21,689 nt of DNA from a virus. Taxonomy: Duplodnaviria; Heunggongvirae; Uroviricota; Caudoviricetes. Under the pieces are notes generated by a model. It did not search any database. It saw only the letters and a program-made list of their open reading frames with translations, and was not told where the DNA came from. This document shows, one piece after another, positions 1 to 4,781 of the stretch (positions within the stretch are counted from its first letter, which is position 1; each line of letters begins with the position of its first letter). Location: IMG/VR virus record IMGVR_UViG_2541047926_000011. The stretch is one strand, 5' to 3'. The position numbers were made by a program, and so were the translations under genes.

Positions 1-981
1 TCACACCGCCAGCCCGCCGCCGAGAGGGTTTAACGTTACTGCGTGTTGCAGGTAATCAGGTGCAAGGTGAGCATAAACCATCGTCTGTTGTATGCTGGCG
101 TGCCCCAGAATTTGCTGTAACGCAATAATGTTCCCCCCGTTCATCATGAACCAGCTTGCAAATGTATGCCGAAGCACATGCGTGGCCTGCCCGCGTGGTA
201 AATCGGGCTTAACCTGTCTGAGCAGTTCGCAGAAGTTTTCATAGTCAACTTTGAACAGTGGCCCAGTGTCGCTGGTCTTGATCTCTTTCTCCAGTTCTTC
301 CGATATCGGAACCGTGCGCTTTTTCCCGTTTTTGGTCTTAAGAAACGTCACGCGCCCGTGATTTACCTGCTCGCCTCGCAGCGTGCTACCTTCGCCCCAG
401 CGTGCGCCGGTGCTTAGGCATAACAGTGCTACGCGTCGATCGTCGCCGGTCAGAGTATCCAGCAATTTGCTGATCTCTGATTTGGCGAGGTAGGTCATAG
501 CTGGCGGTGCTTCTTTCAGTGGTTCCAGACCCTTACAGGGGTTTTCCTTCCTGAACTCTTCCAGCTTTATCAACGTGCTGAACATCCCGGACAAGCGGTA
601 AATATCCCGGTTGATCGTTGCTGCGCTGATACCGTCTTCCAGCCGTTGGCTACGGTGCTGTGCAATCATTCGCTTGTTCAGTCGGTTAACGGCTGGATCA
701 CCAAGCGCCCTGATTGTTTTATTCAGATGCCGCTTTTCAATCTCGCCATTTTCCTGAGTCTGTCCATATAGCAGCCACCAAGTATTTAACAACTCGCTTA
801 AGGTGCGGCGGTCAACGCTCGCGCCCAGCCATTCTTTTTTGTCGGCGTTGGCTAATACATAACGCTCAAAAAGAACTGCCTCTTGTTTCTTCTCAAATCG
901 CCTGCGGATACGTTTTCCGTTACGTCCGCGCGGCCATACGTCCACTTCATATTGACCACCTTCGAGCTTCTTAATCGACAT
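1..981 (-). CDS. int: Phage integrase, tyrosine recombinase (P2 Int-like), complete
   Basis: 326-aa ORF ending in a stop at 1-3; C-terminal catalytic region with LRHTFAS...MVYAHL (His/Arg/Tyr of tyrosine recombinases); sits beside a repressor gene as in P2. Confidence 0.9.
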   Translation of the reverse strand: MSIKKLEGGQYEVDVWPRGRNGKRIRRRFEKKQEAVLFERYVLANADKKEWLGASVDRRTLSELLNTWWLLYGQTQENGEIEKRHLNKTIRALGDPAVNRLNKRMIAQHRSQRLEDGISAATINRDIYRLSGMFSTLIKLEEFRKENPCKGLEPLKEAPPAMTYLAKSEISKLLDTLTGDDRRVALLCLSTGARWGEGSTLRGEQVNHGRVTFLKTKNGKKRTVPISEELEKEIKTSDTGPLFKVDYENFCELLRQVKPDLPRGQATHVLRHTFASWFMMNGGNIIALQQILGHASIQQTMVYAHLAPDYLQHAVTLNPLGGGLAV

Positions 982-1050
982 AAGAAAGCCCTCCGGCGTT
1001 TATTTCTCCATCTTGGTAGCAGATGGTGAAAATGTAGTGTTTATAGATAG

Positions 1051-1350
1051 TTAACCAGTTTGTTTCTCGGAGAGGTCTGATTCCGTTGATTCTGGCCCAA
1101 TGTGTGCGAGAGCCGGTGCGATTTGACCAGCTTGCGGAGCGGTCTTATCAGTCATTAGCCAAAGCGTGTACTTTTCAAATAGTGGGTGCTGGGTGAGTTT
1201 CATCAGTGTTGTCCAGCCAGGTTCGTTATATCCCCCCTCTAATTTTTTCAAGGTGCTAATTGGTATCTCCATGATTTTGCAAAATTGATTCTGGCTGAGT
1301 CCTTCAGCCGTTCGAATCGCCTTTATTTTTTCAGATACGATCATTGACAT
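1051..1350 (-). CDS. C: Immunity repressor, HTH (P2 C-like); start placed at the ATG giving 99 aa, the ORF extends to a GTG at 1377
   Basis: HTH-like stretch SEKIKAIRTAEGLSQNQFCKIMEIPISTLKKL; C-terminal FEKYTLWLMT...GQIAPALAH matches my recollection of P2 C; the 99-aa length equals P2 C. Confidence 0.75.
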   Translation of the reverse strand: MSMIVSEKIKAIRTAEGLSQNQFCKIMEIPISTLKKLEGGYNEPGWTTLMKLTQHPLFEKYTLWLMTDKTAPQAGQIAPALAHIGPESTESDLSEKQTG

Positions 1351-1377
1351 GGTTCCGACTTGTGATCTAGCATTCAC

Positions 1378-1407
1378 TCAACTGGTTCATAACTCGGAAC
1401 CAGTTGA
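1378..1407. promoter_or_regulatory. Perfect 11-bp inverted repeat (TCAACTGGTTC / GAACCAGTTGA) with an 8-bp spacer, just upstream of the repressor start; candidate operator
   Basis: Read directly from the sequence; a GATC lies at 1364-1367 between the repeat and the C start codon. Confidence 0.4.
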
Positions 1408-1910
1408 ACCAGACTCATAACCGCCAATTTAGGCAGTTATAAGCCGAAATAAGCGCCTAGCGCCAATGCGGAGATTAGCACAAATGGTTATGAAACATGA
1501 GGGAGCGAAAGAATCGGGCGGAGCCTTACATATGAGATTCCGCCAGATTAAGGGGAGTCAAAAACGTGGCTTTCTGCGGGTTATTGCAGAACGTTTGTCA
1601 CTGGTGTTCCTTCGAGTTGCTCGTCCAGAAATTTGTGTGTCCTCGCTAAGTTCAATGCAAGTGATTGTGTTACCCCTGCTGAAAACTGCAATCGCAGAGG
1701 AATATCACCAGCAGGGTGCGGAAGCACTACATCGAGTTGTAATTCGCCTGTCTTGGCGTCGAATTTAAGACCTTTAAGGTCAGTAATCGGTAGAGGAAAA
1801 ACGCCCTTAAATTCGTCCATTTTTTTGCCCTATTAGTGTGAGAGCTACAAGGGTAACACGCGCCGGGGCGTGAGAAAAAATCCCGGCAACAATCAATTAG
1901 AGGTAATTCT

Positions 1911-2192
1911 ATGACAGACAAAGAGTTAGAGGGGTTCATTGAAGTGCGTCACGCTGTTGACGCGGTTCCATACCCAAAATTTGCCGAATTGATCGGTAAG
2001 AAGCCCGCCACGGTTAAGAGCATGATTGAAGACGGTAAGTTGCCGATCATCCCGTGGAAGAACCCGGAAAGCCTGGGCGCCCGCGCTGAGAACTGGATCT
2101 ATATTCCTGAGTTCAACCGCGCAATGCGTGACGCCTATTACAACCGTCCGAGAGAACAGCGCGACGCGTGGTTGTTGTGGATCGGTCTTTGA
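1911..2192 (+). CDS. cox: Cox-like excisionase / switch regulator
   Basis: 93 aa (P2 Cox is 91); C-terminal ...RDAWLLWIGL resembles the P2 Cox C-terminus; GAGGT Shine-Dalgarno upstream of the ATG; divergent from C. Confidence 0.75.
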   Translation: MTDKELEGFIEVRHAVDAVPYPKFAELIGKKPATVKSMIEDGKLPIIPWKNPESLGARAENWIYIPEFNRAMRDAYYNRPREQRDAWLLWIGL

Positions 2193-2202
2193 GGTTATCG
2201 CG

Positions 2203-2406
2203 ATGAGCCAGAAAACAGCCAACCACGAAAACCGGGTGCGTGAATGTAACAATATTCTGGACACCCATTTAAAAAATATGCAAACGGGATTCATGATTCG
2301 CACCAATAGCGGCGAGTTTATTATCAGGGATAAAAAGCTGATTAAGAAAATAACCAAAGACGTGGCGCGCCATGTTGATGGTGAATTGCTTAAATTGGGA
2401 ATGTGA
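2203..2406 (+). CDS. Hypothetical early protein, 67 aa
   Basis: ATG at 2203 with GAGG 8 nt upstream, just after the cox stop; the longer ORF from 2026 overlaps cox and is rejected. Confidence 0.5.
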   Translation: MSQKTANHENRVRECNNILDTHLKNMQTGFMIRTNSGEFIIRDKKLIKKITKDVARHVDGELLKLGM

Positions 2407-2416
2407 GGGGGCTTTT

Positions 2417-2623
2417 GTGGCTGTGCAATTAATACAGTTAAGTCGTCACTCATATTTATATCGTGGCTTCACGATTCAAAAGTGCCCGCGTAATCCATTT
2501 ACGTTTAAGCACTCTTATCGTATTTCCAGTAATGGCGATTATTACGGGCGTGACTTTGCTTTAGCGGAAGCCATGCGCACGGTTGATCAGATGTATAAGC
2601 AAGGGGGCAGTAATGCACGATGA
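2417..2623 (+). CDS. Hypothetical early protein, about 68 aa, start uncertain (GTG)
   Basis: GAGGGGG just upstream of an in-frame GTG at 2417; its stop overlaps the next ORF start, suggesting translational coupling. Confidence 0.4.
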   Translation: MAVQLIQLSRHSYLYRGFTIQKCPRNPFTFKHSYRISSNGDYYGRDFALAEAMRTVDQMYKQGGSNAR

Positions 2624-2843
2624 AGGCCCATCACTGGCAAGCCTGCTTAAGCACGGGTGCCAGGTTACACACTTCAAAAACTCACGCGGCTGGCTGGAAA
2701 CACCAGACGGGAAATTCTTTAAACCTGAGCCTGGCAAGGTTCAATTTATTAAGGGAATGAGTAAGCCCTTTGTTTATATGAAGAAGATAAACAAAGGATT
2801 ACTTTTTAACTTTGTTAATTCTTTGAGAAATTTAATCGGCTAA
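2613..2843 (+). CDS. Hypothetical early protein, 76 aa
   Basis: ATG at 2613 preceded by AAGGGGG; overlaps the stop of the upstream ORF. Confidence 0.45.
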   Translation: MHDEGPSLASLLKHGCQVTHFKNSRGWLETPDGKFFKPEPGKVQFIKGMSKPFVYMKKINKGLLFNFVNSLRNLIG

Positions 2844-2885
2844 CAACGCCAGTTAAATAGTAATTAAAAACAGTCTTCACTGTCG

Positions 2886-2901
2886 TCACTTAATTAAGTG
2901 A
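2886..2901. promoter_or_regulatory. Perfect 16-bp palindrome TCACTTAATTAAGTGA in an AT-rich gap about 35 bp upstream of the TerB-like gene; candidate operator or promoter element
   Basis: Read directly from the sequence; the surrounding stretch 2844-2936 is AT-rich and non-coding. Confidence 0.4.
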
Positions 2902-2936
2902 TGGCGCTTTCACTCATCCTAAAAAGGATAAATAGC

Positions 2937-3371
2937 ATGTTTAATAAACTGTTTGGAAAAAAAGTAGCAGCGGCAAAAGTTGAACTTAAGAAAGTAGAAA
3001 ATCGCGATCTGATGGAAGCTATTGTCGGCGGTTGCCTTTTGGTATCTGCCGCCGATGGCGAGATCGAAAAAGAAGAAACCAGCAAGCTGGATCAGCTTAT
3101 CCGCTCTAACCCGCGCCTTGCGCATTTCGGCAATGAGATCACATCCACCATCAACCGCTATACGGAACAGCTTGAAGCTGGCTTCCGCGTTGGCCGCATG
3201 AACATTTTGCGCGAAATCGACGACATCAAAAACGATCCGAAAGAAGCCGAAGAAGTCTTCGTCAACATGCTGACTATCGCCGAAGCGGACGGCCAGATCG
3301 AACCAGAAGAACAGAAGGTGCTGGAAGAGGTCGGGCGCCGTCTGGGGCTGCGTGTTGAGGATTATCTCTGA
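2937..3371 (+). CDS. TerB-like (tellurite-resistance TerB domain) protein, 144 aa
   Basis: Two acidic helical motifs, AADGEIEKEE and EADGQIEPEEQKVLEEV, as in TerB; AAGGA Shine-Dalgarno 8 nt before the ATG at 2937. Confidence 0.65.
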   Translation: MFNKLFGKKVAAAKVELKKVENRDLMEAIVGGCLLVSAADGEIEKEETSKLDQLIRSNPRLAHFGNEITSTINRYTEQLEAGFRVGRMNILREIDDIKNDPKEAEEVFVNMLTIAEADGQIEPEEQKVLEEVGRRLGLRVEDYL

Positions 3372-3553
3372 TGCTGCGCGTGCTGGATTCACTACGTCCG
3401 GCGCTGGCCCTGCTGTTGGCCTTCATGGTCGTAGCAGTGGATTTCACCAGCTACCTGCTTTCGGTGATTGGCGACGCCTTCTTCGTTGGCGCTCTTCTTC
3501 TCCTTGTCTGGCCTGCCATCAAGTCAGCTAACCAATCAGCGGATCACCAGTAA
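3371..3553 (+). CDS. Small hydrophobic (predicted membrane) protein, 60 aa, coupled to the TerB-like gene
   Basis: ATG overlaps the TerB-like stop (ATGA); translation has long hydrophobic stretches (ALALLLAFMVVAVDF..., FFVGALLLLVWPAI). Confidence 0.55.
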   Translation: MLRVLDSLRPALALLLAFMVVAVDFTSYLLSVIGDAFFVGALLLLVWPAIKSANQSADHQ

Positions 3554-3809: not shown

Positions 3810-4781
3810 ATGATCCGCCCGTTCATCAAATGGGCAGGGGGTAAAACCCGTGTCCTCCCTGACCTGCTGCCGCATCTTCCTAAAGCCGACTGCCTGATCG
3901 AACCGTTCGTAGGCGGAGCATCGGTATTTCTGGCGACTGAATACCGCCGCTATGTGCTGGCTGATATCAACCCGGACCTTATTAACCTGTATCGGGAAGT
4001 CACTCGTTACCCGGACTTAGTGATCGATGCGGCCCGCGAACTGTTCAACAGTAAGAACAGCCCGCAGGGATACAACGAAGTCCGCGCCGCGTTCAATAAG
4101 CAGGTGGGTACGGTAAAAAGCGGTGGGTTGCGTTATGGCGCTGAAATGGCGTGCATTATGCGCGCTGCTCAATTCCTGTATCTGAATCGCCACGGCTATA
4201 ACGGCTTATGCCGATACAGCTGGAAGACCGGCTTTAACGTGCCGTTTGGCAAGTATAAGAGCGTCTACTTTCCTGAAAATGAAATATGCCTGTTTGCCGA
4301 AAAGGCCAACGATACAAAGGCAATATTTCTTTGCGCGCCGTTCCAGCGTTCTCTACAGGTCGTCACGGGTGGCGATGTTCTCGTTTACTGCGATCCGCCT
4401 TACCTGCCTGAAAGCAAAACAGCCGATTTTACCCAATACCACACCGAACCATTCACGGAAGACAACCACCGCCAGTTAGTCCAGGCACTGCTGGAAGTTA
4501 ACCGTAAGCATGGCGTGAAGGTCGTCATTTCCAACAGCGACACCGAAGCCACCCGCGCGATTTATCAGCCCTTCAAGATGCACGAAATCAGCGTGCAACG
4601 TTCCGTCAGCACCAACAAAGACAACCGGCAGAAGGCCAAAGAAGTGATCGGCGTGCTGCCTGTCTGCGACTGCTGCGGGCGTTATGGCGGCGGTTGCCCT
4701 GATTGTGGCGCCGTGATGGGTGATGCGACTTACAACGCGATGGTTGCGGCGGGCGAGTTTGACGATCAGGAGGCTTTTTAA
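3810..4781 (+). CDS. dam: DNA adenine methyltransferase (Dam family, N6-adenine, probably GATC-specific) with a Cys-rich C-terminal extension
   Basis: N-terminal FIKWAGGK motif, catalytic DPPY motif, and collinear resemblance to E. coli Dam (LYLNRHGYNGLCRY); about 45 extra C-terminal residues containing CDCC...CPDC. Confidence 0.9.
   Translation: MIRPFIKWAGGKTRVLPDLLPHLPKADCLIEPFVGGASVFLATEYRRYVLADINPDLINLYREVTRYPDLVIDAARELFNSKNSPQGYNEVRAAFNKQVGTVKSGGLRYGAEMACIMRAAQFLYLNRHGYNGLCRYSWKTGFNVPFGKYKSVYFPENEICLFAEKANDTKAIFLCAPFQRSLQVVTGGDVLVYCDPPYLPESKTADFTQYHTEPFTEDNHRQLVQALLEVNRKHGVKVVISNSDTEATRAIYQPFKMHEISVQRSVSTNKDNRQKAKEVIGVLPVCDCCGRYGGGCPDCGAVMGDATYNAMVAAGEFDDQEAF

Follow-up and report, generated by a model that had tools for sequence, protein, structure and literature searches.

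An accessory cassette with a sas-like head element, probably silenced by early transcription, in the C-cox interval of a P2-like prophage

The stretch of DNA analyzed here, 21,689 nucleotides in full and called "the window" below, corresponds to the left end of a P2-like prophage (Peduoviridae, SEN4/SEN5-like). Near-identical copies of this prophage are found in E. coli, where their integration site adjoins cpxP; E. coli AR_0118, AR_0119, AR_0128 and 1332KP are among its lysogens. The window opens with the integrase gene, int. Upstream of int, on the same strand and transcribed towards it, lies the gene for the immunity repressor C, whose product matches HTH_3 (E 1.7e-5) and is 45% identical to P2 C across all 99 residues. 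On the opposite strand lies cox, the first conserved early gene, whose product is 48% identical to P2 Cox; small early genes follow, and then a gene for a Dam methylase.

Between the start codon of C (CAT at 1348-1350) and that of cox (ATG at 1911) lie 560 bp, as an earlier note on this DNA had reported; with this length, the interval is not one of the short C-cox spacers of the P2 type. Also as reported there, it holds an inverted repeat with perfect 11-bp arms (TCAACTGGTTC at 1378-1388 and GAACCAGTTGA at 1397-1407, separated by 8 nt), a 79-amino acid open reading frame on the minus strand (orf79), and an ORF antisense to this, at 1466-1768. The coordinates of these and other features are collected in Table 1.

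Table 1. Genes, predicted signals and RNA structures at the left end of the prophage (positions are those of the window)
Feature	Position	Strand	Remarks
int	1-981	minus	
C immunity repressor gene	1051-1350	minus	99 aa from ATG at 1350
Early promoter Pe (predicted)	-35 TTGACA 1344-1349; -10 TAGCAT 1368-1373	plus	18-nt spacer; start ~1380
Probable C operator	1350-1411		four TGGTTC/GAACCA half-sites; repeats in immunity-specific segment
Conserved block, found with differing repressors and the same Cox	1419-1487	minus	expected Pc and Cox-binding site (predicted); Pc start ~1419
Junction remnant ATGGTTATGAAACATGAGGGA	1484-1504	plus	equals first 7 codons of SEN5 orf33
Inserted accessory (moron) cassette, ~425 bp	about 1488-1910		in leader of early Pe transcript
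GC-rich hairpin GGCGGA...TCCGCC, then CGAUUCUUUCG	1517-1544	minus	possible weak orf79 terminator (from fold)
orf79	1581-1820	minus	RefSeq WP_000343126.1 (hypothetical protein)
sas-like antisense-RNA region	1821-1900	plus	putative, by homology to P22 sas
Hairpin	1825-1831/1850-1856, inner 1834-1837/1844-1847	plus	spans complement of orf79 ribosome-binding site
Candidate orf79 extended -10 promoter TGTTACCCT	1850-1858	minus	predicted start ~1839-1843
Hairpin	1857-1861/1868-1872	plus	
Hairpin, then AACAAUCAAUUAG	1862-1867/1882-1887	plus	mutually exclusive with 1857-1861/1868-1872
cox, first conserved early gene	1911-2192	plus	Pfam Phage_Cox PF10743, E 2.1e-23

The early genes beyond cox include one of the TerB family within 2937-3553 (Pfam TerB, E 2.4e-14), adjoined by a small ORF that carries a DUF3927 annotation in a near-identical RefSeq copy of the prophage (L001). 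In relatives, this pair is swapped for a DUF7446 protein and a 3'-5' exonuclease, which makes the position another variable slot. The Dam methylase ORF (3810-4781) is intact, encoding 323 amino acids with a cysteine-rich C-terminal tail. In several prophages that are nearly identical to this one, RefSeq calls the counterpart an incomplete pseudogene, which may be an annotation artefact of the unusual C terminus. The 3' end of the fil-like gene holds a second perfect 11-bp inverted repeat (CCTTTGTTTAT/ATAAACAAAGG, 9-nt spacer, 2767-2797). This overlaps a weak, sub-threshold match to Rfam rli36 (2722-2808, minus strand), the sole Rfam match and one at chance level.

The switch itself is, as far as its sequence can tell, canonical and compact, with a Pe/operator/Pc core of ~140 bp (about 1344-1487). 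A promoter scan of both strands of 1000-2300 returned a single sigma-70-like site (10 of 12 matches), and this is the predicted early promoter, Pe. Its -35 hexamer overlaps the start codon of C, exactly as does the annotated Pe -35 in P2. In the annotated P2 record, the Pe -10 has the operator sites O1 and O2 on its flanks, and Pc is placed at a distance of 72-97 bp from the start of C.

The earlier note also drew attention to a GATC at 1364-1367, in a phage that encodes its own Dam. The site is present, but nothing marks it out. GATC is abundant throughout the window (149 observed versus ~84 expected), and the Pe of P2 also has a GATC at the equivalent position of its spacer. Thus, on present evidence, the site is not special.

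Inverted repeats like the one beside the C start are not expected often. First-order Markov simulations, counting perfect 11-bp arms with a loop of at most 20 nt, give an expectation of 0.13 per window, versus the two that are observed. Here, the perfect inverted repeat is part of a larger cluster of TGGTTC/GAACCA half-sites. Two of these (1350-1355 and 1383-1388) are in direct orientation, 33 bp apart and on either side of the Pe core; the other two (1397-1402 and 1406-1411) are inverted. The perfect inverted repeat corresponds to the middle two of the four. Four of the 17 such hexamers in the window fall within this cluster.

Where a relative shares Cox with the window and has a different C, the match between the two begins only at about 1419. 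This means that the immunity-specific DNA consists of C together with ~70 bp. Within the interval, the segment that holds the cluster is the sole part that differs between heteroimmune relatives, and each of these has repeats of its own at the same place: two copies of ATCTCTACCAT in L002 and L006, two copies of GGGTCTCAnTTGATACCAT in L005, and the pair ATTGGATTACA/TGTAATCCAAT in L003. Because the repeat cluster lies within the only immunity-specific stretch, it is likely to be the operator of C, and the inverted repeat is very probably a part of this putative operator, placed over the start of Pe.

One might, of course, read the inverted repeat as an RNA hairpin, serving to stabilize the 5' end of the early transcript or to structure the leader of the C mRNA, rather than as an operator. 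By prediction, it makes up the first 30 nt of the Pe transcript; it also lies inside the C leader, and in both RNAs a stem of 11 bp would be stable. However, the repeats that the heteroimmune relatives carry at this position are direct, and cannot pair; the repetition is conserved, and the hairpin is not. Further, the stem does not take in two more TGGTTC copies, one of which precedes its direct partner by 33 bp, an arrangement that fits a protein bound to one face of the helix, and the C protein of P2 binds repeats flanking the Pe -10, according to the annotated features of P2. We therefore regard the RNA hairpin as an unlikely reading.

Past the operator, the block that is expected to hold Pc and the Cox-binding site is nearly identical in L002, L003, L005 and L006. 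The best candidate for the Pc -10 within it is TAAATT (the complement of 1426-1431), which reads TATATT in these four relatives. Its distance from the start of C is 76-81 bp; in P2, the annotated Pc -10 is 72-77 bp away. No good -35 for Pc was found in this block. The proposal of the earlier note that the lysogeny switch may be wired differently from that of P2 is thus mostly not borne out: the overlap of Pe with the start of C is that seen in P2, and it is the early transcript, in its leader downstream of the core, that has taken up the extra DNA.

This extra DNA is what makes the interval long. The gap between C and cox spans 560 bp because it holds an insertion of ~425 bp that compact relatives lack. 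In two of these (L003 and L006), which use the same att site, the gap between C and cox is ~100-190 bp, the insert is missing, and the conserved block runs directly into the start of cox. In L005 and SEN5, other cargo stands in place of the insert, and strain 0H26 and the phages SEN4 and SEN5 have unrelated genes at the same slot. The earlier note had named close relatives of like spacing but lacking a conserved ORF as the outcome that would speak against it. The comparison with other P2-like prophages gave the opposite, in that relatives either are without the whole insert or have its ORF intact. In base composition, the cassette (G+C 45-49%, with orf79 at 45%) is below the window as a whole (53%).

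The junction at the left of the insert carries the heptacodon remnant of Table 1, ATGGTTATGAAACATGAGGGA, which also aligns with the start of cox in the compact relatives. In SEN5, the corresponding gene, orf33, lies on the plus strand and encodes 158 amino acids beginning MVMKHEG. The remnant looks like the footprint of a recombination event that exchanged one cargo for another.

A moron, in the concept of Hendrix and Juhala, is a promoter, a gene and a terminator inserted between backbone genes. Taken singly, the components of the locus are all of known kinds, namely a switch of the P2 type, a moron, and an antisense arrangement like that of sieB/sas. The suggestion of the earlier note that the gap might carry an inserted gene or a small RNA was apt on both counts, in that orf79 is real and conserved and the region adjoining it is homologous to P22 sas.

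That Orf79 might instead be a component of the switch, for instance one that assists or opposes C or Cox, with the long interval representing a rewired switch, is improbable. Its gene does lie between both switch genes, on the strand of the repressor, and the lack of a strong terminator between orf79 and C would permit co-transcription with C and int. However, the insert is common to the window and three other immunity types, and three different C repressors (those of the window, L002 and L015) have this same gene as a neighbor. The closest homologues of Orf79 are found in lambdoid prophages, where they adjoin a gene for an unrelated, CI-type repressor. Close relatives function without any gene in the slot between C and cox, and SEN4 and SEN5, which were isolated as active phages (PMC5261728), hold unrelated genes there.

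The head of the cassette is more widely distributed than its cargo. The ~45 nt upstream of orf79 are common to the other cargo variants and to the lambdoid homologues. They are homologous to the 3' part of the region upstream of sieB in P22, the region that encodes sas. The sequence of P22 sas RNA has been published (127 nt; PMC13397905), and is the exact reverse complement of 29636-29762 in the P22 record BK000583. Positions 1857-1895 of the window, plus strand, align with the 3' hairpins (~45 nt) of sas. The 5' part of sas cannot be aligned with the window, as is expected because the cargo differs. The class-1 and class-2 forms of the element are bridged by a P22-like phage with sieB as its cargo (L090).

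The element was surveyed by searching for the pattern GCCGGGATTTTT-N6-10-CCCGGCGC, drawn from 1850-1890 of the window, minus strand. It was found in 68 IMG/VR viral contigs (loci L023-L087 among them), where it precedes at least 15-20 unrelated small cargo ORFs, including those for SieB and a GhoS-like protein. In at least 27 P2-like contigs the order is cox/element/cargo/C/int, with differing cargo. The remaining contigs with the element are lambdoid, and here the cargo lies antisense in the leftward early operon, beside the repressor. Among annotated phages, the element stands ahead of sieB, both in a P22-like phage and in P22 itself. In P22, in the lambdoid contigs and in SopEPhi, the cargo lies antisense just downstream of a repressor-controlled early promoter. 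No relevant Rfam match at E<=1 was obtained for 900-3000 of the window or for six related loci, and a literature search with a string of sequence returned only unrelated primers.

SopEPhi (L088; AY319521) offers an observation of its own. Within 2501-2900, between its cII-like and fil-like genes, it has an unannotated ORF of 91 amino acids (2571-2846) that is antisense in the early operon; it has the head element and is accompanied by an intrinsic terminator of good quality.

Downstream of the conserved hairpin, a TGnTAnnnT motif recurs in all cargo variants. In the window, this provides the candidate extended -10 of orf79, with a hexamer (TACCCT) that is a poor match. In the class-2 element (P22, L090), the conserved hairpins are followed, at a similar distance, by the mapped -10 and start of P22 sieB. 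For the shorter, class-1 element of the window, we infer the position of the orf79 promoter.

The search pattern prescribes hairpin A of the element, so that ascertainment accounts for part of its conservation in the 68 contigs. Hairpin B shows two double compensatory changes across the copies of the element. In addition, four of its variants that give A.C on the cargo strand give G.U on the early strand, with zero cases of the reverse. Hairpin 2, which lies over the ribosome-binding site of the cargo, was scored by folding each sequence separately; column-wise covariation was dropped because the lineages differ in register in the MAFFT alignment. The early strand is the more stable in 7 of 11 scored lineages (L047 not counted), and it has 12 G.U pairs versus 4. 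This suggests that the structure of the hairpins is under selection on the strand of the early transcript.

It was also considered that the conserved hairpin acts as a leader of the cargo mRNA, occluding its ribosome-binding site. This was rejected, since P22 sieB starts downstream and the wobble pairs favor the other strand. With the mapped sieB promoter and start downstream of the hairpins, these belong to the antisense RNA, and not to the mRNA of the cargo.

Two hairpins of the head element exclude one another, giving it the geometry of an anti-terminator and a terminator. The hairpin at 1862-1887 ends 23 nt before cox, with a poor U tract; were it to terminate transcription, as it presumably does in sas, read-through into cox would have to be assumed. 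We know of no N-type antiterminator for this P2-like phage. A search for a separate plus-strand promoter for the sas-like RNA found no convincing one.

Homologues of orf79 share 57-66% identity and keep its frame of 80 codons. Between the window and L015, the gene differs by 8 synonymous and 5 non-synonymous changes (pS 0.138, pN 0.028); between L011 and L013, pS is 0.43 and pN is 0.06. Read from these patterns of substitution, orf79 is a real protein-coding gene under purifying selection.

This bears on whether the cassette is anything more than an inert remnant of recombination, devoid of present function. Orf79 has no recognizable domain and comes from an extremely rare family, and the junction bears a decayed duplicate of a gene start, much as a remnant might. 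Inert DNA, however, would not be expected to show an ORF under purifying selection and intact in every copy, next to a head element that is kept, with compensatory changes, over two phage families and many cargos; this reading is highly improbable. Least credible is that the first early gene is in truth the ORF on the plus strand (from 1466 or 1484 to 1768), with orf79 as its shadow. This ORF is open for 94-100 codons and shares its first seven codons, MVMKHEG, with the 158-amino acid gene of SEN5. However, in the part that overlaps orf79, a comparison of the window with L015 gives 7 non-synonymous changes and 0 synonymous ones in its frame (versus 5 and 8 in the frame of orf79). In the lambdoid homologues of orf79, stops break every antisense frame and the orf79 frame is open, and the sole Pfam match of the plus-strand ORF is insignificant. 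The antisense ORF to which the earlier note pointed thus shows no coding signal.

Exhaustive profile searches through billions of proteins gave about 13 clusters for the Orf79 family, all of small proteins. Orf79 has no match in Pfam, PHROGs or PADLOC, their exclusion and defence proteins included. Across species-representative genomes, a scan by protein alignment confirmed no Orf79, and a DNA pattern gave one unrelated match in a MAG; the empty scan indicates that the family is rare. The cargo of strain 0H26 (78 amino acids) was tried as a distant relative of Orf79 and dismissed, with an hhalign probability of 0.2%.

From an alignment, AlphaFold2 predicts for Orf79 a structure of three strands and a long helix (pLDDT 81). 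A model made from the single sequence was discarded, as its pLDDT was 59 and its Foldseek matches were meaningless. A candidate for Orf79 is the COMM-domain/PUR-alpha-like fold, in which a sheet of three or four strands is packed on a C-terminal helix, and which forms dimers.

The C-terminal 27 residues of Orf79, LALNLARTHKFLDEQLEGTPVTNVLQ (codons 53-79; 1581-1661), are almost invariant among close homologues; the N-terminal 50 residues diverge to ~50%. At the 3' end of the gene pS is 0.13-0.32, versus 0.5-0.7 elsewhere in it. The possibility of an RNA element in the near-identical 85 nt at the 3' end was rejected: pS is reduced there, not zero, and constraint on the protein suffices. Orf79 has no internal methionine, and hence lacks an in-frame start of the Esc kind.

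Following orf79 is the GC-rich hairpin of Table 1, at a position where L005 has a hairpin of different sequence. A simple terminator scan made no call at 1517-1544. Because the terminator after orf79 is weak, transcripts of orf79 may read into C, and this would alter the model proposed below.

A distant homologue of Orf79 (P0009) is found in a 186-like element on a JGI metagenome contig (L018, 2900-8200), between the repressor region and int. Several other unannotated genes lie with it, one of them for a DUF4325 protein, so that the equivalent position is here taken by a larger accessory island.

Orf79 is a small, soluble protein, and its rare family moves about with the immunity regions of phages of the lambdoid and P2-like groups. 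From the company that it keeps, the best guess as to its role is superinfection exclusion, or some other benefit to the prophage.

Taking these results together, we favor a reading in which a compact switch of the P2 type has received an accessory cassette with a sas-type head, whose cargo is on in the lysogen and is turned off by early transcription; we give this a probability of roughly 0.65. Here, C would be made from Pc, and would repress Pe through the TGGTTC repeats that flank the Pe -10 and extend beyond it. A moron of ~425 bp would have entered between the switch and cox, on the opposite strand, so as to lie in the leader of the early transcript. It would bring a conserved head (the promoter for the cargo, with the sas-like region on the opposite strand), orf79, and a weak, terminator-like hairpin. 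The starts of Pe, Pc and orf79 in this scheme are predictions.

In the lysogen, with Pe shut, orf79 would be on, transcribed from its own extended -10 promoter as an accessory function of the prophage, by analogy with sieB/sas of P22. Upon infection or induction, the Pe transcript would have to cross ~530 nt of the cassette, in antisense, to reach cox. This transcription would oppose the orf79 promoter, and the hairpin region of the Pe RNA, being complementary to the leader and ribosome-binding site of orf79, would help to turn the cargo off.

A broader proposal is possible, and we put it forward tentatively, as something we would not yet bet on. Here, the sas-type head would be a portable, self-silencing platform, shared by lambdoid and P2-like phages and always placed just downstream of a repressor-controlled early promoter. 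It would carry dozens of swappable small cargos that are on in the lysogen and silenced by early transcription. Orf79 would be a new exclusion or abortive-infection protein, and growth of the phage would depend on silencing it.

The slot between C and cox would tie P2-like phages to the classic sieB/sas paradigm of P22. The sas antisense module is perhaps a general carrier of many small, uncharacterized prophage genes, and these become candidates for roles in exclusion or defence in which self-immunity is built in. Apparently undescribed are the placement of such a cassette inside the C-cox interval, the cargo family Orf79, and the reuse of the sas-type head with many cargos across two phage families. 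The slot would also account for a published observation on P2-like prophages, namely that the spacers between C and cox are of variable size and resist alignment (PMC3448106); for the CI class, spacers of 88-125 nt are given in the same work (PMC3448106).

Among known systems, the switch of P2 is the natural first comparison. The two are alike in the order int-C/cox, in a Pe -35 that lies over the start of C, in repeats around the Pe -10, and in the candidate Pc of the window being at a similar distance from C. They differ in the distance between C and cox, which is 114 bp in P2 versus 560 bp here. They also differ in their operators; that of P2 has two direct 8-bp repeats, while the window has TGGTTC in both direct and inverted copies, including a perfect palindromic pair. 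Unlike the early transcript of P2, that of the window has a leader of ~530 nt that is antisense to another gene.

The second comparison is to the sieB/esc/sas locus of P22, reportedly described by Ranade and Poteete in 1993, where sas shuts off SieB. Here also, a prophage gene lies antisense in a repressor-controlled early operon, with orf79 on the minus strand between Pe and cox. The upstream regions are homologous, especially in the 3' hairpins of sas, and the region of the antisense RNA, which is putative in the window, covers the leader and the start of the cargo. The cargo, however, is Orf79 and not SieB, and it is without the internal start that would correspond to Esc. The element of the window is the shorter, class-1 form with a single hairpin, and the phage that hosts it is P2-like, without antitermination of the N type.

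The third comparison is to morons, of which sopE is one known to be shared by P2-like and lambdoid phages. As with other morons, the cassette is present in some and absent from others of a set of near-identical, collinear relatives, and has a lower G+C content than its surroundings. It apparently has its own (candidate) promoter, it does not share a strand with the lytic operon, and it is common to P2-like and lambdoid phages. The published hotspot for defence genes in P2 is near cos, between gpA and gpQ (PMC9122126). This cassette lies inside the interval of a P2-like switch, which would make the C-cox slot a further variable site for accessory genes in P2-like phages, separate from the cos-proximal site that has been screened for defence (PMC9122126). 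Unlike other morons, it brings with it a conserved antisense-RNA head, one that is reused with many cargos.
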